NCBI GenBank assembly: GCA_004298915.1
Contig: SCTE01000249.1
Location: 1 to 35,225, forward strand
From: Chloroflexota bacterium
GTDB taxonomy: Bacteria; Chloroflexota; Limnocylindria; Limnocylindrales; CSP1-4
Direction of reading: 5' to 3'
Length of the DNA stretch: 35,225 nt
This document shows positions 9,102 to 29,800 of the stretch, in pieces; positions within the stretch are counted from its first letter, which is position 1, and each line of letters opens with the position of its first letter. Both the position numbers and the translations under genes were made by a program. The notes beneath the pieces are model-generated. The model was not told the DNA's origin. It saw only the letters and a list, made by a program, of their open reading frames with translations, and did no database searches.

Positions 9102-9105
9102 TGCC

Positions 9106-9711
9106 ATGAAGTCCGCCGACGAATCGACCCACGCTCACGACCTCGCACTCGATGCCGCCGTCGAGTTCCTGAACACGAAGGAACTCGAATTCGGACACCT
9201 CGTGGATCACCTCCACGAGCCGGGCGACGCGCGCTCGTGGTTCGTCGAGCAGGGCGTCATCCACGGGACCGATCGCGCGGGATGGAACCAGCGCGACCTC
9301 GAGCGAGTCCGGAAGGTCCGTGATGCACTCCGGGAGGTCCTCGATGCGGTCGTCGAGGATCGGGCCCCATCTGCGGCGGCTGTCGACCTCGTCAATCGAG
9401 CCCTCGCCGACGGCCGCGTGCCCCGCCTCGAGCTCCAGGGGTCGGACGTCGCCGTCGGGCATCGCCACGGCACGAACGAGGTCGGCGACGCGCTCGCGGC
9501 CCTCGCCGGCCCGATCGTCACCGAGATCGCGACCGGTCGCCCGGATCGGTTCCGTACCTGCGCCAACGACACCTGCCGGTGGTCGTTCTACGATGCGTCA
9601 CCCACCGGGCGGCGGCGCTGGTGCGACATGCGAACATGCGGCAACCGGGCCAAGGCGGCCCGCCATCGAGAGCGCGCCAAGGGCATCGAGATCATCGATC
9701 CCGTGCCCTGA
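9106..9711 (+). CDS. CGNR zinc-finger domain protein (ABATE/DUF1470-type putative regulator)
   Basis: The C-terminus RFRTCANDTCRWSFYDASPTGRRRWCDMRTCGNRAKAARHRER is the zf-CGNR signature. An alternative start is the ATG at 9091. Confidence 0.85.
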   Translation: MKSADESTHAHDLALDAAVEFLNTKELEFGHLVDHLHEPGDARSWFVEQGVIHGTDRAGWNQRDLERVRKVRDALREVLDAVVEDRAPSAAAVDLVNRALADGRVPRLELQGSDVAVGHRHGTNEVGDALAALAGPIVTEIATGRPDRFRTCANDTCRWSFYDASPTGRRRWCDMRTCGNRAKAARHRERAKGIEIIDPVP

Positions 9712-9750: not shown

Positions 9751-11088
9751 TCAACGGGCGAGCCGCGCCCAGATCGGGACTTCGACGGCTTGCGCGGATT
9801 CACCGCAGCCGACCGTCGCGACGAGCAGGAACCGGTCGAGGTGGGCGTATGCCCCCCGGATTCGGGGCCATTCGGCGTCCTGCGGATCCGAAGGAGCCAT
9901 GAGCCATGACGCCCGGATCGTGTGCCCATCCCTGATCGCGGAAGGCTCGATGGCGACGGTGTATCCGCCGATGATCCCCGGCGGGAGCAGCCCCTCGCTC
10001 GGCGCCGTTGCCCCGTACCACCCGACGACGGCACCATCCAGAGTGTCCACTGGATCCTCGTTCGTGACGAGGAACCACGACTCGCCCGAGAGCTCGCTGG
10101 CCGGCTGAACCTGGTAGCCGGCGCTGTCGCCGCCCACCGGCGGATTCTCGCGGTTCATGAGGCCGAACGGAAGCAGGTCGGCCCGCCGCCAGGCGGCTTC
10201 GAGCACGAGGTGGAGGCGCTGCCGGTCGTGGGTCACGGTTCCTCCGGCGTCCACGTCGCCCCGATCGCAGGTCATGGTCCATCGAACGTCGACGTCGGCT
10301 GCGCGGGCCTGCGTGGGATCCGGCACGACGGCGAACACCGGCCCAACGAGCAACGGAAGGATGAGTGAGGACACCAGGGCGGCGGTCAGCCCGGCGCCGA
10401 TCCGGCCCGACCCGGCCGTGTACGCGCGCAGGCGTGCCCACTGCCCACTGACGGCGAGGAGGACACCGGCTCCGAGCAGCGTGCCCAGTGGGACGGTGAA
10501 GGCCCCCGGCGTCGCCGGATTCGCCACCATCCAGACGCCCGAGACGATGAAGTCGATCGCCACGGCGATCGCGTACCAGAGGGACCAGCGCTGCCCCGTG
10601 CCAAGTGCCCGGTAGGCGAGCGCGCACGCGCCGAACGCATAGAGGTAGGCAACGACCGAACTGACCGCGACAACAGGCGTTGCCGTCGCACCGAAGACGA
10701 TGGCGCCCCCAGCCATGAACAGGGCCGCGATGGCCATCATGAGCCGGAGCCAGCGGATGGCTCCAGGCCGTGGACCGTCGATCGCCACGCCGGCCAGGAG
10801 CACGCCGATGGTGCTGGCCCAGAGCGCGGAATGGAAGGTTCGGCCGAAGGCGCCCGCGAGTTCCTCGGCTCCACCGAAATCGTCGATCGCGCGCTGCGTG
10901 GCCGCCGCCACGGAGAGCCCGCTGGCCGCATGCGCACGGATCCGCTCCGCAATGTGCCCGAACAGTTCCTCGGTCAGGTCCTCACGTGCGCCGTGGGGCA
11001 CGTGCGCGCCGTCCACGATCGCCTTGACATACGCATCGACGAGGCCCTCCGCCTCAGTCGCGGGCGCAGGCTCGTCCGGTCCGGTCAT
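9751..11088 (-). CDS. PadR-associated integral membrane protein (N-terminal cytoplasmic helical domain, ~6 TM segments, ~210-aa extracytoplasmic C-terminal domain)
   Basis: The ATG at 11088 overlaps the PadR stop (ATGA, 11085-11088). The N-terminus (LVDAYVKAIVDGAHVPHGAREDLTEELFGHIAERI) resembles the DUF1700/HAAS-type domain usually paired with PadR. Hydrophobic helices follow. Confidence 0.7.
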   Translation of the reverse strand: MTGPDEPAPATEAEGLVDAYVKAIVDGAHVPHGAREDLTEELFGHIAERIRAHAASGLSVAAATQRAIDDFGGAEELAGAFGRTFHSALWASTIGVLLAGVAIDGPRPGAIRWLRLMMAIAALFMAGGAIVFGATATPVVAVSSVVAYLYAFGACALAYRALGTGQRWSLWYAIAVAIDFIVSGVWMVANPATPGAFTVPLGTLLGAGVLLAVSGQWARLRAYTAGSGRIGAGLTAALVSSLILPLLVGPVFAVVPDPTQARAADVDVRWTMTCDRGDVDAGGTVTHDRQRLHLVLEAAWRRADLLPFGLMNRENPPVGGDSAGYQVQPASELSGESWFLVTNEDPVDTLDGAVVGWYGATAPSEGLLPPGIIGGYTVAIEPSAIRDGHTIRASWLMAPSDPQDAEWPRIRGAYAHLDRFLLVATVGCGESAQAVEVPIWARLAR

Positions 11089-11417
11089 CCACCGAGCACC
11101 TGATCGGCTGCGCGCGTGAACCGGTGCCACGACTCGCGGCCTTCGGTGAGGGCCCGCTCGCCGGCCGTGGTCAGGGCGTAGTAGCGCCGGCGTGGCGCGC
11201 CTTCCACGTCGACCCAGCGCGCCCGGACGAGCCCATCCCGTTCGAGCCGGCGGAGCGCCGGGTAGACCGTACCTTCGGGCAGATCGATGACCGCGGTCGA
11301 CCGCGCGCGCAGCTCGGAGACGACTTCATACCCGTACATCTCGCGCTCGCCGAGCAGGCCGAGGAGCAGCAGCCCGTAGTCGCCGCGATCGAGTCGAGGG
11401 GCTGTCATTCGCGTCAC
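11085..11417 (-). CDS. PadR-family transcriptional regulator
   Basis: LLLLGLLGEREMYGYEVVSELRARS...LPEGTVYPALRRLERDGLVRARW...RRRYYALTTAGERAL is the canonical PadR winged helix. The start is GTG at 11417 or ATG at 11408. Confidence 0.9.
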   Translation of the reverse strand: MTRMTAPRLDRGDYGLLLLGLLGEREMYGYEVVSELRARSTAVIDLPEGTVYPALRRLERDGLVRARWVDVEGAPRRRYYALTTAGERALTEGRESWHRFTRAADQVLGG

Positions 11418-13905: not shown

Positions 13906-14481
13906 TCAGAGGGCCAGGCGCGCCACCACCTCGATGCCGTCCATCTCCCCGGTCGGCACGAAGCCCAGACCTCGATAGAACGGCTCGGGCCCGCCGTCGG
14001 CCGGCACCCAGCTGACGAGCAGTTCGTGTGCGTTGGGCAGCGTACGGACGAACTCGACGATCAGCCCGATGGCCGCCCGCCCGTATCCGCGACCCTGGTA
14101 GCGCGCGTCGATCATGAACCGCCACAGGTAGTACTCGGGCGCGTCGCGATCGATCGACAGCATGGCAAACCCGACCGGGGTCCCGTCCGCGTAGATGCCG
14201 CGGTACCAGGCCTTCGGCTCGAACAGCGCCTCCGCGAACGAAATGGCGTTCGGTGCCACGAACGACATCTGCCCCGGTGCCACCGCGAGCCGGCAGATCG
14301 CGCGGACATCGTCCTTCGATACCTCTCGGAGCTCGACAACCGCGCCGTCAGCCACGGACCGCGGGGTCGCCGCCGAAGCGTCAGCCGCGGCCCCGTCCTC
14401 GGGGGCCGTCATGGCCTGCCACGCTCGCCACGAAGCATCGGCCGCCGCCCACGGGTCATCGGTCGTGCCGTCCTCAGTCAC
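13906..14481 (-). CDS. GNAT-family N-acetyltransferase
   Basis: [24 protein letters not shown] is the acetyl-CoA binding motif A (Q/RxxGxG/A). The size is typical. The start overlaps the leuS stop by 8 nt. Confidence 0.85.
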
Positions 14482-17029
14482 GGACGACGAGGTTCACGAG
14501 GCGGCCGCCGCCCGCGACCACGACCCGGTCCGGCGTCCGGCCGCCGAGCGCCGCCACGACGCGCGGCGCGGCAACCGCGAGCCCCTCGAGCTCGGCGTCA
14601 CTGATCCCGGCGGGGACGACGATCTTGTCGCGAACCTTGCCGTTGACCTGGACGGGGACCTCGCGCGTGTCCTCGACGACGGCGGTCGGATCGACCTCGG
14701 GCCATCGCTCCGTGTGGATCGACGACCATGTGATGCCCGCCGCGCCCAGGCGTCGAGACCAGAGCTCCTCGGTGATGTGGGGGGCCGCCGGCGCGAGCAT
14801 CAGGAGCAGCATGCGCACGGCTTCGTCCCACGCAGACCCGCCGGCCGCCGGCGTCCCTCGATACCGGTACAGGACGTTCGACAGCTCCATGAGCTTCGCG
14901 ACCATCGTGTTGAACCGGAAGCCCTCGTAGTCGGCCGTCACGTCCCGCAGCGTTCGATGCGCGGCCGTCCGCATCGCCGCATCGGCCGTGGCCTCGTCCT
15001 GGCCAGGCGGGAGCTTGCCCGCATCCTGGTCGCCCGGATCCGAACCATGGGGGTCGGTGGCGATCGCCCAGACGCGGTTCAGGAATCGGTGCACGCCCCC
15101 GATCCCACTCTCGCTCCACGGACCGCCCTGGTCCCACGGGCCCATGAACATGAGGAACAGGCGGACCGTGTCCGCGCCGTATCGGGCCACCAGCTGGTCC
15201 GGGTCCTGGACGTTGCCCCGCGACTTGCTCATCCGCTCGCCGTCGGCGCCCAGGATCTGGCCCTGGTTGAACAGCCGCTTGAACGGCTCGTCCTCGTGCA
15301 CGAGGCCGATGTCCCGCATCGCCTTGGTGAAGAAGCGGCTGTAGAGGAGATGCATGACCGCGTGCTCGGCGCCGCCGGTGTACTGGTCCACGGGGGTCCA
15401 TCGGTCGGTCATCGAGGTATCGAGCGGACCATCGGTCTTGCCGGGCGACAGGTAGCGATACCAGTACCAGCTCGAATCGATGAACGTGTCGAGGGTATCG
15501 GTCTCGCGCCGGGCAGGACCATCGCAGTTCGGGCAGGTGACCCGGAGGAACGCCTCGTCGTGGGCGAGGGGATTCTCGCCGCTGCCCCGATAGTCGACCG
15601 TGTCCGGGAGGAGGACCGGCAGCTGATCCTCGGGGACGGGCACGGCCCCGCAGCGATCGCAGTGGATGATCGGGATGGGTGTGCCCCAGTAGCGCTGGCG
15701 GCTGATGAGCCAGTCGCGGACCCGGTACGTGATGGCGGGCTGTCCCGCGGCGCGCTCGGACAGCGCAGCGACGATGGCGCTGCCGCCGGCGTCGGCGGTC
15801 ATCCCGGTGAACGGACCACTGTTGACGAGGCGCTCGTCCGCGGCGTGGCTGACGAACGCGGCGTCGAGCGGCTCGTGTTCGGTACCGGGCGCCGCCACGA
15901 CCCGTCGGATCGGCAGGCCGAACTGGGTCGCGAACGCGAAGTCCCGTTCGTCGTGCGCGGGCACGGCCATGATCGCGCCGGTTCCGTAGCCGGCGAGCAC
16001 GTAGTCGGCGATGTAGATCGGGATCCGCTCGTCGTTGATCGGGTTGATGACCTCGGCGCCGATGGCCACGCCGGTCTTCTCACGGTCCGTGGACAGTCGC
16101 TCGATCTCGGTCGCGTCGCGGGCACGAGCCACGTAGGCATCCACTTCGGCTCGTCGCTCCGGGGCGGTCAGCGTCGCGACGAGGGGGTGTTCCGGCGCGA
16201 GGACCATGAACGTCGCCCCGAACAGCGTGTCAGGCCGGGTCGTGAAGGCGCGGAGCTCCTGTCCGCCGGCATGGTGGGCCGATGGCGCCGTGGTGAAGAC
16301 GATCTCGCCACCCTCGGATCGACCGATCCAGTTGGTCTGCATCAGCCGGATCGGGTCCGGCCAGTCGATGGTTCGGAAGTCAAGCAGCTCGTCCGCGTAG
16401 TTCGTGGTCCGGAACCACCACTGGGCCAGGTCGCGCTTCTCGACTTTGGCGCCACACCGCCAGCACCGACGATCCGTCCCCTCGACCTGCTCGCGGGCCA
16501 GCGTGCCGTCGTTGGGGCACCAGTCCACGGCGGCGGTCGCGCGATAGGCGAGGCCCGCCTTCAGGAACTGGAGGAACAGCCACTGGTTCCAGCGGTAGTA
16601 GGACGGGTCGCAGGTCACGACCTCGGCCTCCCAGTCGAACGCCGCCCCCATCGTCCGCAACTGGCGTCGCATGATGTCGATGTTCTGCATCGTCCAGGCG
16701 CGCGGATTGACCTTGTTCTTGATCGCAGCGTTCTCGGCCGGCAGGCCGAAGGCATCGAAGCCGACCGGGAAGAACACGTTCTGTCCGAGCATCCGGTGGT
16801 AGCGGGCGATCGCGTCGGTCGGCGTCTTCACGTACCAGTGCCCGATGTGCAGGTTGCCCGACGGGTAGTCGTACATCGTCAACAGGTAGAACTTGGGTCG
16901 CGATTCGTCAGCGAGGTCGGTCTGGTAAAGGCGCATCTCGTCCCAGCGCGCCTGCCAGCCAGCCTCGATCGAGCCGGCGTCGTAGCGCTCGGCTCGGGTC
17001 CGTTCGATCGGCTCGCTCGTCCTGGTCAC
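14474..17029 (-). CDS. leuS: leucine--tRNA ligase
   Basis: 851 aa. The HIGH motif is SGNLHIGH and the KMSKS motif is MSKSRGN. The CP1 editing domain and bacterial LeuS blocks are present throughout. GTG start at 17029. Confidence 0.97.
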
Positions 17030-17141: not shown

Positions 17142-17217
<76 letters not shown>

Positions 17218-17310: not shown

Positions 17311-18861
17311 TTACGGTGACGCGAGGACGGTCAGGAAGACCACCACCGTCGCCGTGGTTCCGTTGCGTTCCGCCTGGACGAAGAGTCGGACGAGGGGTCC
17401 CGTGGTTCGAGGCAGGAACACAGCGGGCCCGGGGATCGGGACGAGGCCGCTGGCAAACCATCCGCCGAGGTCACACCCGTTGACGCTCAGCATCTGGCCG
17501 TTCGCCGCGGGATCCAGGCGGCCACAGGAGCCTCCCCAGGTCCGGATGGTCCACCCGGGTGCCTCGATGCGGAGCGGCGTTTCGGGCGGGACCGACAGGA
17601 CGGGCAGGCCGTCCGGGACCTCGCTGGCACCGCAGAACTCGAACCCGCTCGCGCCGACGTCGAAGGCCCAGGTGGCACCACAGAGCGATTGAATCGCCGG
17701 TACGGTCGTGCCGGTCGGCGTCGCGATGCGGATCGACGGAACGTCGGCACCGGCCACGTCGATGAGCCACCGGCGCGTTATTGATACGTCGGCCGAAAAC
17801 CGAATCGTGGCACCGACCGTGACCCGTCCCGTCGGGAGGTCGTGCAGGGCCCATCGATTCTGGGCGTACAGGAACGGATTGTTGGCGGTGTTCTGCTCCT
17901 GGTCGAACTGTGTGTCGAATCCCGTTTCGGGCTGGGAACCGGTCAGGGTCCATCCGATCGCACAGGCATCGCCGACCACCCGAATCTCGAGCGGTTCCCC
18001 GATGCGCACCGCCACCAGCGGTGGGGTCGCGGCCCCCGGCGTGCCCTCGACCGGACCGCCACGAGCCCCGGCGAGGACGAGGGAGGGAGGCACCCCGCCG
18101 GGAGGTGGCGGGGCACAGGCGACGGCGGGCGTCGCGAGCGGGCTCGGGATCGGCACGGGAGCGGCCGAGTTGATGACCCGGAAGTAGCGCTCCAGCACCG
18201 TGCCGCCGTCGTCGCCCGACGACCCGGTCGAGAAGTAGGCCACGACGCGCACGACCCAGTCGCCACTCGGCAGCTGGCCAAGGGGCAGGATGGATCGAGG
18301 CGGGCTGATGTTCACGGTCCGGAATGCGACCGGGTAGGGAAGCGTGACGCCGGGAGCTCCGGGCAGGTATTCGGCGACGACGTACCGCATGCACGCGTCC
18401 TGATCGGCAAGCACCGAGATCGTGGTCCCGGCCGAGAGGCGCAGGGCACCGGCGGCGCCCGGGGTCGGCCATGCGGGTGCGTCGGTGCCGGTGCCGGTCG
18501 CGGTCGCCGGCGTGCCGCGGATCGATCGCGGATCGCCCGGCTCGAGCCCGAGCAGGATCTCCGGCGGCACGCCGAGGCGAACCGGCGTGCAGCCGAGGCC
18601 GGTGTTCTGCGTGGGCGGCGGCAGCGTGCCCGACGTGCCCGACGGACCCGCCGATGCCGACGCGACGGCACCACTCGTCGCCGAGGTCCGTGGCGATGGC
18701 GATGGCGCGGGGCTGGTAAATCCGTGGCCTGCGAGCCCGATCCCGACCCCGACGACCACGACGGCCGCCGCTCCGACCAGCGCGATCCGCGCCCGATCCC
18801 GCGCCCGGCGCGGGGTGCCGAGGACGGGCCCGACGGGCGCCTCGACGCCGTCCGGCTTCAT
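17311..18861 (-). CDS. hypothetical membrane-anchored exported protein, paralog B (516 aa; three Cys-containing modules)
   Basis: The ATG at 18861 overlaps the stop of the upstream paralog (ATGA). The N-terminus MKPDG...RRARDRARIALVGAAAVVVVGVGIGLAG is a signal anchor. There are 8 Cys. It is collinear with paralog A (AQNRW, PGWTIRTWGGSCG, GCDLGG). The 151-aa track extension is Arg-rich and overlaps gene A. Confidence 0.7.
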   Translation of the reverse strand: MKPDGVEAPVGPVLGTPRRARDRARIALVGAAAVVVVGVGIGLAGHGFTSPAPSPSPRTSATSGAVASASAGPSGTSGTLPPPTQNTGLGCTPVRLGVPPEILLGLEPGDPRSIRGTPATATGTGTDAPAWPTPGAAGALRLSAGTTISVLADQDACMRYVVAEYLPGAPGVTLPYPVAFRTVNISPPRSILPLGQLPSGDWVVRVVAYFSTGSSGDDGGTVLERYFRVINSAAPVPIPSPLATPAVACAPPPPGGVPPSLVLAGARGGPVEGTPGAATPPLVAVRIGEPLEIRVVGDACAIGWTLTGSQPETGFDTQFDQEQNTANNPFLYAQNRWALHDLPTGRVTVGATIRFSADVSITRRWLIDVAGADVPSIRIATPTGTTVPAIQSLCGATWAFDVGASGFEFCGASEVPDGLPVLSVPPETPLRIEAPGWTIRTWGGSCGRLDPAANGQMLSVNGCDLGGWFASGLVPIPGPAVFLPRTTGPLVRLFVQAERNGTTATVVVFLTVLASP

Positions 18862-20417
18862 CGGGCGACCACGTGCGCGTAGTACGTCACGGTGAACTGG
18901 TTCCCGCCCGGGTCGACGGCGGTCAGGCCGATCTGCACGATGGTGTCGCCCCGAGGCAGGACGAATGCCGGTGGGTCGGGCAGGGCCCCGCCACCGTCGG
19001 ACGCGCCGCCCCCGAGCCCGCACCCGCCGGGCGAGTCGAATTGCGGCACGTCGGCCACGATGATCTGCCCACACGTCGCGCCCCAACTGACGATCGACCA
19101 GCCGGGCAGGTCCAGGTGGATCACCCGGTAGGCGACGACCCGGAGCGCTTCGTCGGTGGGCACGTAGCCGATCGAGCCGCAGTCGTCGCTCGCCTCGTAG
19201 CCGTTGGACAGGCGCAGCGACAGGCCGCAGCCCGGTGATGCCGCGAACCGGCTTCCGTCCGGACCGACGAGGACGAGCGTTGGCACGACGAATGGATCGA
19301 TGAACAGTCGCCACTCGCGACGGATCGAGACGGCGCCCGGGAACTCGAGCGTGGCGACGACGAGCTGCTCGCCATTGGCGACGATCGGCCAGCGATTCTG
19401 CGCGGCGTAGGTCGGATCATCGGCCGGGTCGTTGAACTCGTCGATGACCGATGTCGTGCCCGACGTCCGGTCGGTCAGCTCGATCCGCCAGCGGGTTGCG
19501 CACACTTCGCCGTCGGTAATGAGCTCGATCGGATCGCCGAGGCGGGCGTGGACGTCGGACGCCACGGCCTCACCCCCCGGCGATCCCGGGATCGCGGATC
19601 CGCCACCGACGACCATCGTCATCCCGAGGTCCGGCGTCGGCTGGCCGGTGCCGCACGGGACGGCCGGGCTGATCACCGGCGCACGCCCGGGCGTTGCCGA
19701 CGGCGGATCGGTGAGGAACGGACCGGCCCCGGCCAGGACCCGGAAGAAGGTCACCGTGACGACATCGTCGCTCACGGTACCGAGCGTCTCGAAGTGGGCG
19801 GTTACTCGAACGGTCCAGTCCCCATCCGGAAGGCCGGTGAGGCCGACCTCCGCTGCTGCCGGCGCAACGGGACCCTTGAAGAGCGGGACGACACTCGCCC
19901 TGGGCACGTCCGAGGTCGACCCGTAGTCGACGACCAGGTGCCGGATGCACACGCCCCGGGCGACACGGACCATGAGGCGGGCGCCCTCCCCCGCGATGAG
20001 CCCCTGACTCGCGCGCGGCACCTGCCATCCGGGCGCCTGCGACTGCTGACCAAACCCCGAGCCGAATCCGAACAAGCCGCCGACCTGGCGACGGCTGCCC
20101 TCGATCCCCATCAGGACCTCGGGAAACTGGCCCCGGGGCGGGGGCGTGCACGCCTGCGCGACACCGGACCCGGAGGGCTCGACCGACGAACCCGCCGAAG
20201 TCCCCGGGGATACAGAGGGATCAGGTGACGGCGACGGGCTGCCGACCACGATGCCGACGACGAGGAGGGCAAGCGCGGCGGCCACGGCACCCGCGCCGCG
20301 CCCAGGGCCGAGCGGCCGCCGACCTGAGCCCGGAATTGCCCCTCGGACGTCACCGCTTCGCGGCTCGATCGCATCGAAGACCGGCAGATCGTCGCCGCGC
20401 TCGGGCTCCCGCATCAC
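18858..20417 (-). CDS. hypothetical membrane-anchored exported protein, paralog A (519 aa; three Cys-containing modules)
   Basis: A ~43-aa N-terminal cytoplasmic tail precedes the TM segment GAGAVAAALALLVVGIVVG. There are 8 Cys at positions aligned with paralog B. Shared motifs are LPDGDWTVRVTAHF, AQNRW, PGWSIVSWGATCG and GCGLGG. Confidence 0.7.
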   Translation of the reverse strand: MMREPERGDDLPVFDAIEPRSGDVRGAIPGSGRRPLGPGRGAGAVAAALALLVVGIVVGSPSPSPDPSVSPGTSAGSSVEPSGSGVAQACTPPPRGQFPEVLMGIEGSRRQVGGLFGFGSGFGQQSQAPGWQVPRASQGLIAGEGARLMVRVARGVCIRHLVVDYGSTSDVPRASVVPLFKGPVAPAAAEVGLTGLPDGDWTVRVTAHFETLGTVSDDVVTVTFFRVLAGAGPFLTDPPSATPGRAPVISPAVPCGTGQPTPDLGMTMVVGGGSAIPGSPGGEAVASDVHARLGDPIELITDGEVCATRWRIELTDRTSGTTSVIDEFNDPADDPTYAAQNRWPIVANGEQLVVATLEFPGAVSIRREWRLFIDPFVVPTLVLVGPDGSRFAASPGCGLSLRLSNGYEASDDCGSIGYVPTDEALRVVAYRVIHLDLPGWSIVSWGATCGQIIVADVPQFDSPGGCGLGGGASDGGGALPDPPAFVLPRGDTIVQIGLTAVDPGGNQFTVTYYAHVVAR

Positions 20418-20514
20418 CCGACCCGACTCGTCACGCGAACGCGTCCATCAAGCACATCGCCATCGCCCCACCATCATGCCCGGCTGACGCCGGATCGTCG
20501 CCATTCGTTACGGC

Positions 20515-21384
20515 GTGGCACCATCGATCGCCATGGCCACCCCGGGTTCACTCGAAACGCATCGGTTGCGGCTGTCCGGCGGCGAGCTGACGTATCTGCT
20601 CAGGAGATCGGCTCGATCGAGGGCGCTTCGGGTGACGATCGATCCCAGGCGCGGGGTCATCGTCACGGTCCCCCTCGCTTCCCGTCGCGGCTGGGCTCAT
20701 CCGGAGCGCGAGGTCGAACGGTTCCTGGTGGCCCGGGAGCCATGGCTTCGACGCCACCTCGCGAAGTTCGAGGGCCAGCGATCGGTCATCGAGGCCCGCG
20801 GAGGGATCGTCGACGGCGGGACGTTCCGGTATCTCGGGGAGCTCCATCGATTGCGGTTCCTTCCGGCGGCCGCGGGCGTCCGTCGATCCACCGTTGCCAG
20901 GCTCGGCGCGGACGACGGCGACGAGATCCACCTGTCGCTCATCCAGCGCGACCTGGGAGCCGCGATCGAGCGCGAGGTGCCCGCGGCGGTGCTGAAGGCG
21001 TGGCTGCGGGCGCGCGCGGCGGTCGCGATCGATCGAGCCGTCGCGACGCATGCGCCGGCACTCGGCGTAAAGCCCGGCCGGATCACCTTGCGCGACACGC
21101 GCTCGCGCTGGGGGAGTGCCTCGAGGAAGGGCAGCATCTCCCTGTCGTGGCGGCTCATCCTGGCGCCACCCGAGGCCCTTGAGACGGTCGTCATCCACGA
21201 GCTCGCCCACCTGCGCGAGTTCGGCCACGGCCCGCGGTTCTGGGCCCTGGTCGCGTCCCGCCGGCCGGATCACCAGGCCTGGCGGCGCTGGCTGCGGGCG
21301 CATTCGATGGAGCTGCACGCTGCACTCGATCCGCCGGCCGCGCGGGACTCGCTGCTCCCCGACGATGGCATCGACGTCGAATGA
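20515..21384 (+). CDS. YgjP-like (DUF45/M48-related) zinc metallopeptidase
   Basis: RSRWGSASRKGSISLSWRLILAPPEALETVVIHELAHLREFGHGPRFWALV contains the HExxH motif in the typical DUF45 context. The start is GTG at 20515 or ATG at 20533. Confidence 0.8.
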   Translation: MAPSIAMATPGSLETHRLRLSGGELTYLLRRSARSRALRVTIDPRRGVIVTVPLASRRGWAHPEREVERFLVAREPWLRRHLAKFEGQRSVIEARGGIVDGGTFRYLGELHRLRFLPAAAGVRRSTVARLGADDGDEIHLSLIQRDLGAAIEREVPAAVLKAWLRARAAVAIDRAVATHAPALGVKPGRITLRDTRSRWGSASRKGSISLSWRLILAPPEALETVVIHELAHLREFGHGPRFWALVASRRPDHQAWRRWLRAHSMELHAALDPPAARDSLLPDDGIDVE

Positions 21385-21669: not shown

Positions 21670-22776
21670 ATGAAAGGACCGTCTGTGACCAAGCGCCGCA
21701 TCGTCGCGAACGTGCTCATCGCGTCCGCCATCGCCGTCACGCTCGTCGGCATCGGGCTCATCTCGAAGAACCGAGATGCGCTCACGGCCCAGGCCACCGG
21801 CTCGCCCGGCGTACCCACGGACTCGACGTCCGTCCCGACGCCCAGCCTGACTGCCACCGCGTCCGGATCACCGCTCGAGACGCCGAGTTCCACGTCGAGT
21901 GCGGGCGAGCCGACCTCGCCACCCGAAACCACGAAGCCGGGTCGGACGCCCGGTCCCACGCCGCCGCCAACACCGAAGCCCGCGGCATGGCCGGCGATCG
22001 GCCACATCTACACGATCGTCATGGAGAACGAGGAGGCAACCTCGATCATCGGCAGCGCCAAGGCGCCGTACATCAACAGCCTTGCGGCCACCTACGGGCT
22101 CGCGGCGAACTTCACGGCCGTGGCGCATCCGTCCGAACCGAACTACGTCGCGATGTTCTCGGGCTCGACGCAGGGTGTGACCGACGACGCCACGCACACG
22201 TTCACCAAGGTGGCCAACCTCGCCGACCAGATCGAGGCCTCCGGGCGCGACTGGCATGTCGCGGCGCAGAACGTGAAGCTCGAGTGCTTCGCCGGGACCT
22301 CGTCGTCGGGCGGAGCGGACGGCGCCGGAACGTACGTTCGCAAGCACGAGCCGGCCATCATGTTCAGCCAGATCGCCTCGAACCCTGGCCGCTGCGCCAA
22401 GATCACCGACTTCACCCACTTCGATCCGAACCTGGGCAACTACTGGTTCATCGCCCCGAACCTGTGCAACGACATGCATGACTGTCCGATTGCAACGGGC
22501 GACGCCTTCCTGAGGTCGTTCCTGCCGACGATCCTCGACTCGGCCGCGTTCAGGAAGGACGGCCTGATCTTCCTGACCTTCGACGAGGGGTCGTCGAAGA
22601 AGGGCGGCGGCGGCGAGGTCGTCACGGTCGTCATCAGCCCGAAGGGCAAGGCCGGGTACGTCTCGAACGTCGCCTACAACCACTACTCGGTGCTGCGAAC
22701 GATCGAGACGCTCTGGAAGATGCCCTGCCTCGCCAACGCCTGCAAGGCCGCGCCCATGCGGGACATGTTCCGCTGA
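21670..22776 (+). CDS. phosphoesterase-family protein (acid phosphatase / phospholipase C-like), membrane-anchored with a Pro/Thr linker
   Basis: An N-terminal TM segment and PT-rich linker are followed by IYTIVMENEEA...APYINSLA...HPSEPNYVAMFSGSTQG...FIAPNLCNDMHDC...LTFDEG, typical of the phosphoesterase family. An alternative start is GTG at 21685. Confidence 0.75.
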   Translation: MKGPSVTKRRIVANVLIASAIAVTLVGIGLISKNRDALTAQATGSPGVPTDSTSVPTPSLTATASGSPLETPSSTSSAGEPTSPPETTKPGRTPGPTPPPTPKPAAWPAIGHIYTIVMENEEATSIIGSAKAPYINSLAATYGLAANFTAVAHPSEPNYVAMFSGSTQGVTDDATHTFTKVANLADQIEASGRDWHVAAQNVKLECFAGTSSSGGADGAGTYVRKHEPAIMFSQIASNPGRCAKITDFTHFDPNLGNYWFIAPNLCNDMHDCPIATGDAFLRSFLPTILDSAAFRKDGLIFLTFDEGSSKKGGGGEVVTVVISPKGKAGYVSNVAYNHYSVLRTIETLWKMPCLANACKAAPMRDMFR

Positions 22777-22861: not shown

Positions 22862-22978
22862 ACGGGGGCGTCGCAGCACGCTGAACGGCTGGACGGGCCG
22901 AGAGTGTAGCACGAGGTCGGGCGAATTCCGGGTGGCTGCCCTGCCCGAACGGATCCGGAGACCGGGTCGATTTGGCCA

Positions 22979-23007
22979 TTGATTCATTCGAACAGATGTT
23001 CGATACT
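22979..23007 (+). promoter_or_regulatory. LexA (SOS) box TCGAACAGATGTTCGA inside the imuA' promoter (-35 TTGATT, 17-bp spacer, -10 GATACT)
   Basis: The box at 22988-23003 is a perfect palindrome matching the actinobacterial consensus TCGAAC-N4-GTTCGA. The -10 ends 9 nt before the ATG at 23017, so the mRNA is leaderless or nearly so. Confidence 0.8.
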
Positions 23008-23016
23008 TACCATCTC

Positions 23017-24192
23017 ATGGCAACCCTGTCCGCGGATGTGACGACCGCCCTCGCGACCCTGCAATCGCGCTGGGGAGCGGCCGCGCCGCGCCCCGGGGAA
23101 GTGATGGGAGCACTCGCGCTGGCGCCTGCCGTCCTGCCGGATGCGGCCACGAACCCGGACCCGACGCCCGACCTCGCGCGCGTCTACTCCACCGGGTTCC
23201 CGGCGCTGGATGCCATCCTCGGGCCGGGGGGCCTGCCACGCGGGATGGGCCTTTCGCTGCGGGGCGAGCTCTCGAGCGGGCGGACGACGATCGCCCTCCG
23301 GCTCGCTGCCGAGGCGCAGGCGAGTGGCGCCATCGTGGCCTGGCTTGATCTCGCGGAGGCCTTCGATCCGGTCGAAGCCGCGGCCCGCGGCATGCAGCTG
23401 GAGTGGCTGGTAGTGCTCACCCCGGCTGGCCCGGAGGAGGGCCTCGCGATCGCGGGGTCGCTCCTGTCCGGCCGGACCGTGGACCTGCTCGTCATGGACC
23501 TGCCGCCTCGTCCGGACGGAGCGTCGCGCTTTGCCGATCGACTCGGGCGGCTCGCCGCCCTGGCTCGCCGGGCGGGTATCTCGCTGCTCATCCTCGAACC
23601 GCCGGGCCTCGTGAACTCGGTGGCGGCCGCGGTCGGGGAGGGCACGGGCATCCGCCTCGAACTCGAGCGACGGTCATGGATCCGGCTTGGCCGCGATGTC
23701 GTCGGGCAGGCCGCCGATGTCGTCGTCGCGCGGAGCCGGGCCGGCCCACCCGGGCGGCGGACCACGCTCCGGATCCTCTATGCCGACGGCGGGGATCGGG
23801 ATGCGTGCCTCCGCCAGGAGGCCCTCCTCAGGGAAGGCTTGCCGGCCGAGGTCGTGCCCATCCGGGCCAACCCCCGCGCCGGCAGTACCACCGACCGATC
23901 CACCCGATTCGCCGCCCCAATTCATGCCCCCGTTCCAGTGCCCGGGACGACCCATGCAACTCCTTCATTGCTATCGCCCGCATCTCCTCCTCGACCTGAC
24001 CAGGCAGCGCCGGGCCTCCGGCTCGTGGCCGGCGGGCCCGATCGTCCTCGGGGGCCAGCCATGGGGCGCGGGGACCGTGCTGGACGCGGATCCCGCGGCC
24101 CGGCACCTCGGCGTCCGGCGCGGGATGCCGCTCGGGTCGGCTCACCGGCTGGCACCGGAGGCAACCTTCCTCGATCCGGAACCGGAGGCTGA
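23017..24192 (+). CDS. imuA: ImuA/ImuA'-type RecA-fold SOS mutasome protein
   Basis: GFPALDAILGPGGLPRGMGLSLRGELSSGRTTIALRLAAEAQASGAIVAWLDLAEAFDP...VDLLVMDL parallels the RecA core. The gene is preceded by a LexA box and followed by imuB. The conserved part ends near aa 275, but the frame stays open to 24192. Confidence 0.75.
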   Translation: MATLSADVTTALATLQSRWGAAAPRPGEVMGALALAPAVLPDAATNPDPTPDLARVYSTGFPALDAILGPGGLPRGMGLSLRGELSSGRTTIALRLAAEAQASGAIVAWLDLAEAFDPVEAAARGMQLEWLVVLTPAGPEEGLAIAGSLLSGRTVDLLVMDLPPRPDGASRFADRLGRLAALARRAGISLLILEPPGLVNSVAAAVGEGTGIRLELERRSWIRLGRDVVGQAADVVVARSRAGPPGRRTTLRILYADGGDRDACLRQEALLREGLPAEVVPIRANPRAGSTTDRSTRFAAPIHAPVPVPGTTHATPSLLSPASPPRPDQAAPGLRLVAGGPDRPRGPAMGRGDRAGRGSRGPAPRRPARDAARVGSPAGTGGNLPRSGTGG

Positions 24193-25213
24193 TCGGGCGT
24201 CCATCGAGGCCGCCTTCGAGGCGCTCGCGACGTTCAGCCCGGCGATTGCCGGATCAGCCGATCCCGCGGACCAGGCATTCGGCCTGCTCGAGGCCCAGAT
24301 CGACGGCCTCGAGCTCCTGTGGGGCCCGGAGCCGGTCCTCGTCGAACGGATCGGCGCGAAGCTGGCGCCGATCCTCGCCGGGCGGCCCCGCAACGGCATT
24401 GCCGGGACGCGCTTCGCGGCGATGGTCGCGGCGGCGACCGCGGAGCCCGGGGCGTTGATGTCCGTGCCCCCCGGCGGGGAAGCAGCCTTCCTGGCGCCGA
24501 TGCCGACCGGGCTGCTGACCCAGGATGCCGAGATCCGGGCCCGCCTGCGGCGCTTCGGGCTGCGCCGGATCGGGCAGGTTGCCGAGCTCGCCGCGTCCGC
24601 GCTCGTGGCCAGGTTCGGGGAGGAAGGCGCCCGGATCGGGGCCCGGGCCCGGGGCGAGGAGACCGATCCCTTCCGGCCGCGCCGGGCCCCCGAGCGATTG
24701 CTCCTGGCCCTCCCGATCGAGCCGCCGGTCGCGGAGCTGGAGGCCGTCCGGTTCGTGCTGCGACGGATCGCCACCGCGCTTGCCGCGAACCTCGCGGCCC
24801 GCGGCCTTGCGGCCGCGCGCGGGCAGGTCCGCCTGGAGCTGGATCTCGCCTTCGCCCGCGCGGGGACACGCGGCGAGGTGATCATCCAGGCGCGGTTCCC
24901 CGAGCCGACCGCCGATGCGGAGGCGATCGAGCGGCTGCTCCTGGCGCACCTCGAGCGGACCCCACCCCCGGCCCCGGTCGCCCGCCTGGAGCTCGAGCTG
25001 TCCGGTGCCGAGCCGGCCGAGGGTCAGCAGCTGCCGCTGTTCATCCCGCAGGCCCTGCGCGGCGCACGGCTGCGCTGGCAACTTGCCCGATTGGCGATGA
25101 CCTATGGCGAGGATCGCGTTCGCAGCGTGGTCATCACGGACCCGGAAGCGCCGCTGTCCGAGAATCGCTGGGCCTGGCGGGCGGTGGCAGGCGCGGGCGG
25201 GCCCCTCCGATGA
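23954..25213 (+). CDS. imuB: ImuB, Y-family-polymerase-like mutasome subunit
   Basis: MQLLHCYRPHLLLDL...VLDADPAARHLGVRRGMPLGSA...LEAQIDGLELLWG resembles the DinB fold but lacks the catalytic acidic N-terminal motif. The position is typical for imuB. Confidence 0.85.
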   Translation: MQLLHCYRPHLLLDLTRQRRASGSWPAGPIVLGGQPWGAGTVLDADPAARHLGVRRGMPLGSAHRLAPEATFLDPEPEADRASIEAAFEALATFSPAIAGSADPADQAFGLLEAQIDGLELLWGPEPVLVERIGAKLAPILAGRPRNGIAGTRFAAMVAAATAEPGALMSVPPGGEAAFLAPMPTGLLTQDAEIRARLRRFGLRRIGQVAELAASALVARFGEEGARIGARARGEETDPFRPRRAPERLLLALPIEPPVAELEAVRFVLRRIATALAANLAARGLAAARGQVRLELDLAFARAGTRGEVIIQARFPEPTADAEAIERLLLAHLERTPPPAPVARLELELSGAEPAEGQQLPLFIPQALRGARLRWQLARLAMTYGEDRVRSVVITDPEAPLSENRWAWRAVAGAGGPLR

Positions 25214-25458
25214 CGAGGCTCCTTCATGCGCACCCGGCCATCGAGCCGGAACTCGATGGTGGTGGTGCGCTCGTGGCCATCCGCTGGGCGGGTCGCCGGG
25301 AGCCCGTCGAGGTCTGCAATCGCTGGCGGGTCGAGGAGACCTGGTGGCGCGAGCCGATCGCGCGGGACTATTTCAAGGTCGTCGGAACGCGCTGGCTCGC
25401 GCTCATCTACTACGACCGCGTCAGCGGCTCATGGCACCTGGAGCGGCTCTACGACTGA
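25210..25458 (+). CDS. small Trp/Arg-rich conserved-looking protein (82 aa) translationally coupled to imuB
   Basis: The ATG at 25210 overlaps the imuB TGA (ATGA). The product is MTRLLHAHPAIEPELDGGGALVAIRWAGRREPVEVCNRWRVEETWWREPIARDYFKVVGTRWLALIYYDRVSGSWHLERLYD. It may belong to a catalogued DUF (I recall DUF6504). That assignment is unverified. Confidence 0.65.
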   Translation: MTRLLHAHPAIEPELDGGGALVAIRWAGRREPVEVCNRWRVEETWWREPIARDYFKVVGTRWLALIYYDRVSGSWHLERLYD

Positions 25459-25503
25459 ATCGTCCAGTCGTCGGGTCCGCCCGGTGGCCTTGCCGCCGCG
25501 CCC

Positions 25504-25602
25504 TCAGTGGGTCGGCACGAGCACCGTCGTCAGGAACAGCATCACGAACAACCCGACCACGAACACCAACGCCCCGACATCGCGCGGCTGAGCCGTCTGC
25601 AC
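25504..25602 (-). CDS. small single-TM peptide (32 aa); not in the ORF track
   Basis: GGAG-N7-GTG (25602). The peptide is MQTAQPRDVGALVFVVGLFVMLFLTTVLVPTH*. About 30 of 32 codons end in G or C. It shares an RD[VI].GA[LV] start-of-TM motif with the 25742-25846 peptide. Confidence 0.4.
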   Translation of the reverse strand: MQTAQPRDVGALVFVVGLFVMLFLTTVLVPTH

Positions 25603-25741
25603 CAAACATCTCCCCGATCGCCGTCGAACCGGTCCCGGTCGGTTCGCCCGAAGGAGTGTAGCTGCGAATCGCACATCGTGCGAGCGAAAAATTCAGCCGA
25701 TGGAACGCCCGTTCGAAGTCTCGAGGTCCGATGCCCCTCCG

Positions 25742-25846
25742 TCAGGCCGCTGCCTGCCAGGCCGAGTAGAAGAGGATGGCCACCAGGCCGATCAACACGG
25801 CCGTCAGGAGCACAGCGCCGATGATGTCCCTGGCCCTGATTTCCAA
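25742..25846 (-). CDS. small single-TM peptide (34 aa); not in the ORF track
   Basis: GAGGAG-N7-TTG (25846), 18 nt after the lipoprotein stop. The peptide is MEIRARDIIGAVLLTAVLIGLVAILFYSAWQAAA*. About 31 of 34 codons end in G or C. Confidence 0.45.
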   Translation of the reverse strand: MEIRARDIIGAVLLTAVLIGLVAILFYSAWQAAA

Positions 25847-25864
25847 TGCGGATCTCCTCTGCGA

Positions 25865-26461
25865 TCAGCCCGTGAACGGACACCCGGCGCCGTACAGGAT
25901 CGACACGATCGTACTGCTCCCGAGGGGCATGACCGTGACCCGCACCTGGCAGGCGGGATGGATGTCGACCCCCGAGAGTTCGAGGCTGCCGTCCTCGCGA
26001 GGCCCAGACGCGCCCACGATGATCCAGCCGGCCCCCTGGAGCGCGGTCTGGTAGAAGTTCATGACGGCACCGGGCTCGGCCGCTCCCGCGTCGAGTGTCG
26101 CGCTGGCCGGGCCGGCTCCGGTCTCGGTCGGATGCGCACCCGGGTACGTCGGAAAGCCCGTCGGGAGTCCGTCCCAGATGCGTCCCCAATCGGTATCCGT
26201 CTGTCCGGGCATCGTCGGCGCGGCGGTGGCGCCGGGCTCCGTCGGGACGGGCGTGAGCTCGGCCGTGGGTTCCGCGAGCGACGGCACCGGCGATAGCGAC
26301 TGGGTCGACGTCGGCCCAGGGGTGCCCTGCACGGTGGAACAGCCGGCGACCAGGCACGCCGTCAGGCCGATGACCGCAAGGGCGTGGACAGCGCTGGGCC
26401 GGGGGCGTCGCCTCGCCGCCTGCGCGGACAGGCGAGGACTGATCGGGTAGGGCGGCTGCAC
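25865..26461 (-). CDS. hypothetical lipoprotein
   Basis: A signal peptide with a positive n-region and lipobox (RRRPRPSAVHALAVIGLTACLVAGCS) is followed by a Pro/Thr linker and a ~110-aa domain (MNFYQTALQGAGWIIVG...). Confidence 0.7.
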   Translation of the reverse strand: MQPPYPISPRLSAQAARRRPRPSAVHALAVIGLTACLVAGCSTVQGTPGPTSTQSLSPVPSLAEPTAELTPVPTEPGATAAPTMPGQTDTDWGRIWDGLPTGFPTYPGAHPTETGAGPASATLDAGAAEPGAVMNFYQTALQGAGWIIVGASGPREDGSLELSGVDIHPACQVRVTVMPLGSSTIVSILYGAGCPFTG

Positions 26462-26627
26462 GGGGGAATCCTACCCCGAGCGTGGCAGGACCCCGCCGCC
26501 CCCAGATGCGACGGGGTCCTGTGCGTGGTCCGATCACCTGCTCACCAGGTGCCGGCCGATCGGTGACCGGCGTGGTACCGATCCCCGAGCCTCACCCCGG
26601 CTCTGCGCCGGAGCGGTGCTTTCGAGT

Positions 26628-26759
26628 TCAGGTTCCGGTCTGGGCTGCCAGGGCCGCCGGGAGGAGGACGAGGATCAGGAGACTCACGATGGCGATCATC
26701 GCGACGATCCTCGTCAGGACGGCGGCAAGGCTGCGAAACGAACGGAAGCCTGTTTCCAC
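26628..26759 (-). CDS. small single-TM peptide (43 aa from GTG 26759; up to 61 aa if GTG 26813)
   Basis: METGFRSFRSLAAVLTRIVAMIAIVSLLILVLLPAALAAQTGT*. About 36 of 43 codons end in G or C. It is transcribed divergently from dnaE2. The start codon is uncertain and the SD is weak. Confidence 0.35.
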   Translation of the reverse strand: METGFRSFRSLAAVLTRIVAMIAIVSLLILVLLPAALAAQTGT

Positions 26760-26808
26760 GGCCCTTCTGACGCCACCGGGCGACAAGTTGTTGCGTCGCC
26801 GGGCGAAC

Positions 26809-26837
26809 TTCACGGTATCGAACAGATGTTCTATACT
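26809..26837 (+). promoter_or_regulatory. LexA (SOS) box TCGAACAGATGTTCTA inside the dnaE2 promoter (-35 TTCACG, 17-bp spacer, -10 TATACT)
   Basis: The box is at 26818-26833. The 20-nt stretch TCGAACAGATGTTC[G/T]ATACT is 19/20 identical to the imuA' promoter element, and the box sits at the same position relative to the -10. Confidence 0.75.
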
Positions 26838-26874
26838 GCCCGTTCATCTGCCCCCCCCGACACCGGGACCTGCC

Positions 26875-29800
26875 GTGGCTCAATTCCCGTACGCGGAGCT
26901 CCACTGTCACTCCAACTTCTCGTTCCTCGACGGGGCGTCGCCGGTCGAGGACCTGGTGGCACGGGCAGTCGAGCTCGGCCTGACCGGCCTCGGGATCACC
27001 GACCACCTCGGCCTGTATGGCGTGGTCCGATTTGCGGCGGCAGCCGAGGCGGCAGGCCTCCACCCGGTCATCGGAGTGGAAGTCGAGCTGCTCGACGCCG
27101 TCGTCGCCGATCCCTCAGGGGTCGTGGTCCCGGGTCGCCGGGCTGCGCGCCGCGGACGCCCGCCTGCAACCACGTCGATGGCTCCGTTCGACGTGATCGG
27201 TGCGGCCGGGGCCGTCGAGGGCCTGCCTGCGCGGCGGCGACCGGAGCGTGCCAGGCCCCCCGGCCATCGAGCGATCGTGAAGGAGGACCTGCGAGGGATC
27301 GGGGAACGCCAGCGGGGCCCGCATCTCGTGCTGCTGGCCCGGGACGCGACCGGGTACCGGAGCCTGTGCCGTCTCGTGTCCCATGCCAACCTGGCCGGCA
27401 CCAAGCGCGTGCCGCGGTTCAGCCAGGCGCTCCTCGCCGAGCATGCCGAGGGTCTCGTGGCGCTGTCCGGCTGCCGGGACGGCGAGATCGCCCGGCGACT
27501 CCTGGTGGGAGACCGCGCGGGGGCACGGGCGGCGGCGGAGCGGTATGCGAGGATCTTCGGGGGGAGCGGCGGCTCGCGTGTCCGGGCCGGCACTTCCGGG
27601 GACGGGCCCGCCACGAGCGGCTTCTTCCTCGAGCTGTCCCATCACCTGCTCCCCGACGACGACTGGCTCGTCGCCGAGACGGCGTCGCTCGCCGCCGACA
27701 TCGGGCTGCCCGTCGTCACCACGAACGACGTCCACCACGCCCGGGCCGAGGATCGCGAGCTCGGCGACGTCCTGACGGCCATCGCGCATGGGCGGACGCT
27801 CGACACGCTCGCCGACCTGCGCCGGCCGAACGGGGAATCGCACCTCAAGTCGGGTGCGGACCTCATGGCGATGCCGCCGGGGGACGCGGCCTTCGCGCGG
27901 GCGGACCCTGCGACGGCCAGGGCCTGGGTCGAGGGGATGGGCAATGCCGTCGAGGTCGCGGCCTCGTGCACCGTCGACCTCGGGTTCGAGCGGTATCGCT
28001 TCCCGGGCTTCCCGGTGCCCGCCGGGGAGACGGCGTTCAGCTATCTCGTCGAGCTCTGCCAGGCCGGCGTCCGTCGCCGCTACCACCCGGTCTCGCCGCC
28101 GGTCGTCCGGCAGCTCGCCCACGAGCTCGATGTCGTCGAGAAGACCGGGCTCGCCGAGTTCTTCCTGATCTGCTGGGACCTGATGCGCTTCGCGAAGGAG
28201 CGGGGGATCCCGGCCCAGGGCCGGGGCAGCGCCGCGGATTCGATCATCGCCTATGCCCTCGGGATCACCCGGGTCGATCCGATCCGCCACAACCTGCTGT
28301 TCGAGCGGTTCATCAACGAGGGCCGGACGACGTACCCGGACGTGGACATCGACTTCTCCTCGGAGCGGCGGGAGGAGGTCATCCAGTACGTCTATCAGCG
28401 CTACGGCCCGGAGCACACGGGGATGGTCTGCAACCTCGTCACGTACCGGGCGCGATCCGCCGTCCGCGAGGTCGGCTATGCGCTGGGGTTCCCGCGGCCG
28501 CTGGTCGATCGGGTGGCCAAGGCGCTCGAGACGTACGACAGCGTGATGGTGCGGCGGGACCTCGAGGCGGATGGGGGATTCGCGGACTTCTTCCGTCGAC
28601 CGGGGGACGAGGGGAGTGGCGGCGCCGCTGGCGAGGCGGTCGCGGCAGCAGCGGCACGAACCGGGGAGCGCGGCCTGACCGATCGGATGGGCCAACTCAA
28701 CGTGCGACGCGGTGGAGTGCCCCGTCCGGCCGGCGCGGGGAGCGGCGGGCGTGCCGTGCCCGGGGCCGTGCCGAGGGGCCGGCCCGAGGTTGTGCCCGGG
28801 GCCGTGCCGGTGGGCCGACCCGAAGTTGTGCCCGGGGCCGTGCCGGGTCGCCGGCCCGAGGGCGTGCCCGGGGCCGTGCCGGGTCGCCGGCCCGGACTTG
28901 GCCAAACGAACATCCCCGGATTACTGGGCAGCGAACAGGCGGCAACCAGGCCCGGCAGCTCCCCGGGCCTGGCCGAAATCATCCCGGCGGGAGCGTGGCT
29001 CGGGACAAATCCTGCCGGGCAGGACGGGGAGTCGGGGCACGGTGGGGGCTCGGTGCTGCCCAGCGATCCCCCGGTGGTAGTACGGCAGGAAGTTGCGGCC
29101 CAGATCGCTCCTACCACGGCCGCGGCCCCCGCCTCGCCGTCCCGGGCCGGCCCGGGGCCGCCGGTTGCCGCCGGCAGCGGCCACCGCGGCGGCACTTGGG
29201 CCATGGCCGCGGGATCCAAGCCGTCCATTCGAGCGGGTGGCGTGTCGGACGACAAGGGTGGCCCGGGCGATTCGCCGGCGAGCGTGGCGTGGCTGGAGTC
29301 GGGGCGTGGCACGGGATACGGGTCGGGTAGCGGGGATGGCCGCGGAGCGGGGCCGGCGTCCGTGGCGCCCGGCACGGTCGATGGCCGCGCGATCGATCCC
29401 GAATCGGGAGCAGTGGCGCCGCCCACGAGGCGCACGGATCGCCTGGGGCGGCCGCATCGCTGGGACCCGCCCGCGCCGCCGACGCACGGGATGGGCCGCG
29501 GGGGAGCGGGCCCTGGTGCCGCCGCGAGTGCCGCGGCCGGCGCGCCGCAGAGTTCCGTGGCGCGCGTGGAGCCCGAAGTGCCGGCCCACCCCCGTGGCGG
29601 GAGCACGATCGGGATGTCCGACTGGGAGCGCTGGCTCGAGTTCTGCGCCCGGATCGACGGGTTCCCGCGGCACCTCAGCATCCATTCCGGCGGGATGCTC
29701 GTGACGGCTGCCCCGCTCATCGACATCGCACCGCTGGAGCGCGCGACGATGAAGGACCGCGTCGTCGTCCAATTCGACAAGCGCGACGTCGAGACGCTCA

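Follow-up and report, generated by a model that had tools for sequence, protein, structure and literature searches.

An overlapping pair of paralogous, predicted bitopic envelope proteins from Limnocylindria-type Chloroflexota with a profile-level link to the divergent InlB B-repeat

Three kinds of described system come closest to the proteins considered here. The divergent InlB B-repeat (PF18998, Flg_new_2) is related to the InlB B-repeat of Listeria (PF09479); immunoglobulin (Ig)- and fibronectin type III (FnIII)-like surface arrays, such as those of SiiE-type adhesins, the macroglobulin (MG) domains of alpha-2-macroglobulin (A2M), PorU and the Hoc and tail decoration proteins of phages, are strings of beta sandwiches; and bitopic anti-sigma factors of the extracytoplasmic function (ECF) class carry extracytoplasmic beta-sandwich sensors, as in the clostridial RsgI type, whose sensors resemble carbohydrate-binding modules (CBMs). 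We compared with these systems two adjacent genes, A and B, found on a 35,225-bp contig (~70% GC; the whole of this stretch is called the window below) from a Chloroflexota metagenome-assembled genome (MAG). A and B belong to an undescribed, lineage-restricted protein family whose architecture, that of bitopic proteins bearing an Ig-like ectodomain, is of a known kind and one of whose modules has a remote known relative. We read them as a non-enzymatic, probably heteromeric, membrane-anchored binding, sensing or scaffold pair that would couple an extracytoplasmic ligand to a cytoplasmic partner, and we give this reading a probability of roughly 0.45.

The original prediction, made from the letters of the window, described two minus-strand genes joined by an ATGA stop/start overlap and encoding collinear tandem paralogs, and both the open reading frames (ORFs) and the junction (minus-strand letters cgcccgATGAagccg) agree with it (Table 1). 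No Shine-Dalgarno-like purine run was found in the 20 nt upstream of the ATG of B, which fits coupling by termination-reinitiation, and the overlap, as (A/G)TGA, is preserved in 9 of 10 orthologous loci. BLASTP aligned A with B collinearly at 29% identity over 489 aa (E = 1e-40). Both genes carry a coding signature rich in GC at third codon positions, and dozens of full-length orthologues were recovered for each. Gene A has two possible starts, GTG at 20417 or ATG at 20414; gene B bears the NCBI locus tag EPO00_05555 and is annotated “hypothetical protein”. The possibility that a frameshift had broken one gene in two was ruled out, B having its own conserved tail, transmembrane helix and stalk, and no third family member was found elsewhere in the window.

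Each protein has a single hydrophobic segment (residues ~41–59 in A and ~25–45 in B) with a charged tail before it and a Pro/Ser-rich stretch after it, and hydrophobicity and an AlphaFold2 (AF2) model agree on the signal-anchor topology proposed earlier, with a short cytoplasmic tail, one transmembrane helix and a Pro/Ser linker. Conservation of these regions was expressed as mean pairwise identity among orthologues (21 in the case of A). By this measure the tails reach 0.67 in B and 0.49 in A, the transmembrane helices 0.67 and 0.66, the ectodomain modules 0.43–0.56 and 0.48–0.58, and the stalks 0.36 in both proteins. Tail and transmembrane helix are thus jointly the most conserved regions of B, and across the pair the tails and the GxxxG-bearing helices are conserved at least as well as most ectodomain modules. 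The DDLPVFDA motif in the A tail is near-invariant among the 21 orthologues, and other subfamilies have acidic N-terminal motifs of their own (ELVDLGE and VELEELPxQ). The same style of anchor, an N-terminal transmembrane helix followed by a long P/S/T-rich linker, also occurs in a PF04185 phosphoesterase-family protein at window positions 21670–22776, a region where GC drops to the minimum for the window (0.646) and which has tRNA-Tyr and tRNA-Ala genes on its flanks; this may be a general mode of exoprotein display in the organism.

Outside the membrane, the AF2 model of A (64-sequence alignment; predicted local distance difference test score, pLDDT, 80.8, with most of the ectodomain >90) has a helix at 43–56, disorder at 54–87 and an all-beta ectodomain in three strand clusters. 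Secondary-structure assignment of this model by DSSP gave an all-strand module 3, and module 2 modelled alone (pLDDT 90.9, predicted template-modelling score 0.85) has nine strands. The eight Cys of A (90, 157 / 255, 306 / 397, 413, 449, 466) and of B (91, 157 / 249, 300 / 394, 410, 446, 463) match in position in the 2+2+4 distribution that had been described, and the pairs are conserved in the 64-member family alignment, in which six of the Cys never vary and the other two are kept in ≥90%. Joint loss of C449 and C466 was seen in 18 relatives and single loss in only about 3, which supports a C449–C466 disulfide. The motifs quoted at the outset (LPxGDWxVRV, AQNRW, PGWxIxxWGxxCG and GCxLGG) all appear in the 64-member consensus, and the three modules behave as evolutionary units, relatives being found with modules 1+2+3, 2+3 or 1+2; module 2 is the most widely shared across the family. 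An hhalign comparison of module 1 with module 2 brought their Cys into register across 111 aligned columns (E = 1e-4, probability 58%), and the two modules probably arose by an old internal duplication. The residues invariant across the 64 members are C, W, G, P, a few Y/F/R/A and a Q-N-R-W loop. No catalytic residue set occurs among these positions, which suggests that A and B are binding or scaffold proteins and not enzymes.

Scans of A, B and their relatives with Pfam, NCBIfam and PADLOC returned no matches, and sequence-profile searches of the PDB with the whole-family and module 2 profiles gave noise only. An exhaustive profile search gathered 296 cluster representatives at E ≤ 1e-3, among them two giant proteins, P0118 (3013 aa) and P0145 (1552 aa), which come from unrelated lower-GC organisms, combine 17–36 PF18998 repeats with DUF285 and form the bridge that exposed the relationship of the module 3 domain. 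Positions ~386–469 of the family profile match P0118 30 times and P0145 17 times in repeats that Pfam assigns to PF18998, so that 30 of the 36 PF18998 repeats in P0118 and 17 of 17 in P0145 are matched, at up to 21.6 bits per repeat. With repeats cut out independently of the family profile, hhalign aligned module 3 to PF18998 at 93.7% probability (E = 1.9e-7, 45 columns), setting “GWSIVSWGATCG...GGCGLG” of module 3 against “GYQIASWSGTCG...KDCSIS” of the repeat; modules 1 and 2 had no match to the repeats. In the reverse direction, a hidden Markov model of the PF18998 repeats matched the module 3 site in 134 of 237 family proteins. We conclude that profile-level homology links the core of module 3 remotely to the divergent InlB B-repeat. 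The two have in common the motif G(W/Y)xIxSW(G/S)xxCG ... xC and the strand pattern, and both are parts of extracytoplasmic surface proteins; however, only about 45 columns align, scores lie below the Pfam threshold, and PF18998 did not match A or B at E ≤ 10. Unlike the repeats of PF18998 proteins, module 3 stands as a single copy inside a 142-aa module, with an extra Cys pair, three extra C-terminal strands and no tandem array. Literature on the InlB B-repeat yielded nothing bearing on function.

The comparison with Ig/FnIII surface arrays rests on fold. Foldseek searches of the full A model against the PDB and BFVD returned tandem Ig/FnIII/MG arrays only (complement C3, A2M, PorU, fibronectin, SiiE, and phage tail and Hoc proteins), with high probability and template-modelling (TM) scores of 0.1–0.25. 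For module 2 alone nothing was significant (best E = 6e-3, TM ≤0.47), the nearest of these non-significant neighbours being SoxYZ, AA10 cores, CopC and PKD. Foldseek probabilities of 0.98–1.0 to FnIII, MG, PKD, SoxYZ and CopC sandwiches place the modules in the Ig/FnIII-like superfold, an assignment of fold class only, and together these results point to generic Ig-like sandwiches without a close solved relative. A and B therefore resemble the surface arrays as strings of beta sandwiches but differ from them in lacking the CGEQ thioester, a sortase/LPXTG signal and a repeat array, in having an N-terminal transmembrane anchor, and in structural similarity that reaches only the TM scores just given. 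The original prediction had seen no recognisable family in any module. This stands for sequence matches in Pfam, NCBIfam, PADLOC and the PDB and for any specific annotated structural family; it gives way for the core of module 3, remotely PF18998, and for the general class of fold, Ig/FnIII-like.

Several other assignments were tried and rejected. An A2M-like protein was ruled out, there being no CGEQ/CLEQ near any of the eight Cys and no A2M Pfam domain. Matches to the type VII secretion Rv3446c family (TIGR03931; 16.6 bits, E = 0.0079, against a cut-off of 47.6), confined to the anchor region, and to the CU044_5270 family (NF038083; 13.1 bits against a cut-off of 100), confined to the transmembrane helix and low-complexity linker, were judged to be noise, and a defence system was ruled out by the lack of a PADLOC match together with the housekeeping context.

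With ECF anti-sigma factors of the RsgI type, A and B share a short cytoplasmic N-terminus, one transmembrane helix and an extracytoplasmic beta sandwich. The likeness extends to gene arrangement in two relatives made of modules 1+2. P0199 overlaps by 4 nt the 3′ end of an ECF sigma gene (L019:2-454) with Sigma70_r2 and r4_2 domains, and P0197 overlaps by 8 nt the 3′ end of an ECF sigma gene (L022:1-162), of which the region 4.2 C-terminus is seen. Judged from these overlaps, the arrangement is anti-sigma-like, with the relatives translationally coupled to ECF sigma genes. A and B differ from ECF anti-sigma factors in that neither a neighbouring sigma factor nor a recognisable anti-sigma domain is seen, and in forming a paralogue pair.

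The family has so far been seen only in high-GC, Limnocylindria-type Chloroflexota, judging by the sequences recovered. All named matches are Chloroflexota or Candidatus Limnocylindrales MAGs, and the loci of distant relatives have 67–74% GC and a LeuS 73–76% identical to that of the window, which puts them in the same broad lineage; a word-indexed homology search with 19 distant relatives gave only 2 proteins, both already known. Every sufficiently long A/B locus contains both genes, in the order YgjP-like gene (divergent) / A -> B -> leuS, and across loci the identity to the window proteins is 36–72% for A, 36–68% for B, 67–83% for the YgjP-like protein and 75–94% for LeuS. A and B form separate clades in a neighbour-joining tree across at least 10 genomes, which speaks against the purely local duplication that the original prediction had named as its possible undoing. 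More distant relatives are single-copy. Further subfamilies comprise two-module (2+3) proteins of about 360–440 aa, proteins of 550–580 aa and module 1+2 proteins of about 370–410 aa; an independent second tandem pair was found in locus L018.

The slot between the YgjP-like gene and leuS is plastic in content, holding either one two-module gene or a three-module pair. At L017:8001-9143 a single two-module gene fills it, with a VanW-domain gene inserted before leuS, and at L021:658-1755 a single two-module gene lies directly upstream of leuS; these two genomes (LeuS 73–76% identical) are about as distant as carriers of the A/B pair. We also observed a 1000-aa fusion, P0174 (L020:8001-11003), in which modules 1+2 follow a 565-aa N-terminal region without a Pfam match; it adjoins a transposase of the rve type and a fragment of a serpin, and 7 kb upstream there is an ECF sigma gene.

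Table 1. Positions in the window of genes A and B, their predicted parts and the surrounding features (aa, amino acid residues of the protein concerned)
Feature	Position	Strand	Remarks
Gene A	18858..20417	minus	519 aa; predicted bitopic, N-in/C-out, three beta-sandwich modules
A cytoplasmic tail, aa 1-40	20298..20417	minus	motif DDLPVFDA(I/L)EP ... LGPxRGAG
A transmembrane helix, aa ~41-59	20241..20297	minus	GIVVG = GxxxG motif
A Pro/Ser-rich flexible stalk, aa 60-88	20154..20240	minus	pLDDT about 30
A module 1, aa 89-235	19713..20153	minus	beta sandwich, Cys90/Cys157, LPDGDWTVRV
A module 2, aa 251-377	19287..19667	minus	9-strand Ig-like sandwich, Cys255/Cys306, AQNRW
A module 3, aa 378-519	18861..19286	minus	four Cys
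Core of A module 3, aa ~426-470	19008..19142	minus	GWSIVSWGATCG...GGCGLG; remote homologue of PF18998 at profile level
ATGA stop/start overlap A/B	18858..18861	minus	TGA of A + ATG of B
Gene B	17311..18861	minus	516 aa; collinear paralogue of A
B cytoplasmic tail, aa 1-24	18790..18861	minus	M(K/R)PDG(I/V)EAPxxPVLGxPRRSRDRARIA
B transmembrane helix, aa ~25-45	18727..18789	minus	GVGIGLAG, GxxxG-type motif
B module 1, aa 90-229	18175..18594	minus	
B module 2, aa 245-371	17749..18129	minus	
B module 3, aa 372-516	17314..17748	minus	
Conserved non-coding element, A/YgjP divergent intergenic region	20472..20514		GCCGTAACG...GACGATCCGGCGTC...GCATGATG
YgjP-like (PF01863) putative zinc metallopeptidase	20515..21384	plus	HELAH motif; divergent from A
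tRNA-Ala(GGC)	17142..17217	minus	directly downstream of B
leuS	14474..17029	minus	conserved downstream neighbour

Downstream of B, tRNA-Ala and leuS lie on the minus strand as the original prediction had placed them. On the other side, each of the 10 A/B loci has a YgjP-like gene as its divergent neighbour, as do all four of the further loci that were looked up (those of the two-module proteins P0166, P0173 and P0139 and of the independent-pair member P0140), although the other neighbours in these four differ. The YgjP-like gene is therefore a candidate functional partner or co-regulated gene of A and B; literature on YgjP/DUF45/COG1451 yielded nothing bearing on function. The divergent intergenic region contains an element of ~43 nt, with an imperfect palindrome inside, that scarcely varies, even between loci whose A protein has fallen to 36% identity. 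No Rfam family, no covariation-supported RNA structure on either strand and no sigma-70-like promoter or terminator were found for it; the lack of an Rfam match and of covariation support suggests that the element may be a shared operator or promoter.

Further features of the window were recorded in passing. The start of a GNAT acetyltransferase gene (13906–14481) overlaps the end of leuS by 8 nt, and the leuS-GNAT order is also present in L001. Positions 22972–31629 hold a mutagenesis cassette of imuA-like (RecA-fold), imuB (IMS) and dnaE2 genes; the dnaE2 ORF extends to as much as 1715 aa, compared with 1476 aa for the L001 homologue, and its matches to the Pfam models PHP and HHH_6 spread well beyond model length, which suggests insertions, with no intein domain reported. 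An unannotated ORF of 459 aa with “permease prefix domain 1” (NF038403) lies at 9751–11130, adjoined by an ABATE/CGNR zinc-finger regulator at 9091–9711.

Under the explanation we favour, A and B would each be inserted N-in/C-out by a single signal-anchor helix and would display, outside the membrane, a flexible Pro/Ser stalk followed by three disulfide-stapled Ig-like beta-sandwich modules. B would be made by termination-reinitiation at the ATGA, giving roughly equimolar amounts of the two proteins, which most likely pair 1:1 through their GxxxG transmembrane helices, their ectodomains or both. The ectodomains would bind an extracytoplasmic ligand or envelope polymer and couple it to a cytoplasmic partner, in the manner of a sensor or scaffold. 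The conservation of the tails and the ECF-coupled module 1+2 relatives make such a role more likely than passive surface decoration. For an obligate A–B heteromer the evidence is circumstantial, consisting of the conserved coupling, the constant retention of both paralogues and the GxxxG helices; ligand binding and the existence of a cytoplasmic partner are likewise inferred. Several points weigh against this explanation. No sigma-70 r2/r4 gene occurs among the window ORFs scanned and none adjoins A or B, Pfam and NCBIfam recognise no anti-sigma domain (zf-HC2, RskA or similar) in either protein, and the tails are 24–40 aa long. The gathering threshold of PF18998 (23.6 bits) was passed by 0 of 64 family members, with 1 of 64 touched at E = 0.15. 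The adjacency to YgjP could be synteny inherited within one lineage, LeuS being 73–94% identical across all loci, and other paralogue classes (L015, L020) sit elsewhere without a YgjP-like gene.

The same data admit other readings. A and B might be independent, partly redundant structural or adhesive proteins of the surface, engaged in no specific complex or signalling and adjacent only through an old tandem duplication. We regard this as doubtful but deserving serious weight. The only neighbours that Foldseek returned are Ig/FnIII domains in tandem, as in adhesins, complement MG domains and phage decoration proteins; a core resembling the InlB B-repeat is a typical feature of proteins at the cell surface; divergence of the ectodomains is rapid (A falls to 36–72% identity where LeuS keeps 75–94%); and the content of the locus is plastic. 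A passive anchor, however, would not need tails and transmembrane helices as conserved as the ectodomain modules or more so; the retention of both paralogues in every genome with a conserved 4-nt overlap, and the wiring of relatives to ECF sigma factors, also count against this reading. By analogy with anti-sigma factors and regulated intramembrane proteolysis, the pair could instead consist of sensors or proteolytic substrates whose ectodomains would detect a cue from the envelope or the environment and whose tails would then be bound or cleaved by a cytoplasmic factor, the YgjP-like protein being a candidate. The constancy of this neighbour across subfamilies while others change, the strongly conserved 43-nt element in the shared divergent region, the conserved tail motifs and the module 1+2 relatives directly behind ECF sigma genes would all fit such a scheme; we nevertheless hold it to be unlikely, given that PF01863 proteins are widespread in bacteria without the A/B family, that no relevant literature on a substrate was found, that neither a sigma factor nor a regulator adjoins A or B, and that the synteny may be purely historical.

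A role as carbohydrate or cell-wall binders that tether peptidoglycan, S-layer or exopolysaccharide to the membrane, with the QNRW loop of module 2 and the conserved Trp residues forming a glycan face, strikes us as improbable. Its attractions are the conserved residues of surface type (W, Q, N, R, Y), the lytic polysaccharide monooxygenase cores and CBM-like sandwiches of glycoside hydrolases among the weak structural neighbours of module 2, and one independent-pair relative beside a glycosyltransferase/pyruvyl-transferase cluster; yet every one of those module 2 matches was non-significant, no CBM profile matched, and the glycosyltransferase neighbourhood was seen in one locus only. The longest shot among the readings makes A and B a novel kind of heterodimeric receptor spanning the membrane, in which short, strongly conserved cytoplasmic peptides would recruit a conserved cytoplasmic machine. 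The DDLPVFDA motif of the A tail may be similar to the core D-(I/V)-P-x-F of the C-terminal peptide of FtsZ, and candidate partners for the tails would be adaptors of the divisome or elongasome, or the YgjP-like metallopeptidase encoded next to A. If true, such a receptor would allow monoderm Chloroflexota to tie growth, division or ECF-type transcription to the wall state sensed by the ectodomains.

Soils and fresh water are rich in Limnocylindria-type Chloroflexota, which are uncultured and of whose cell envelope, to our knowledge, almost nothing has been described. The family would add two extracytoplasmic domain families to domain databases, one comprising modules 1/2 and the other the extended module 3. 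Its housekeeping neighbourhood, at least two duplications into coupled pairs, constrained tails and the reuse of its modules behind ECF sigma factors point to a lineage-specific core function in the envelope. Should the proposed sensing or coupling role prove false, what remains would be a well-delimited, ordinary family of lineage-specific surface proteins; should it prove true, the pair would offer a starting point for learning how these bacteria keep watch over the state of the envelope.

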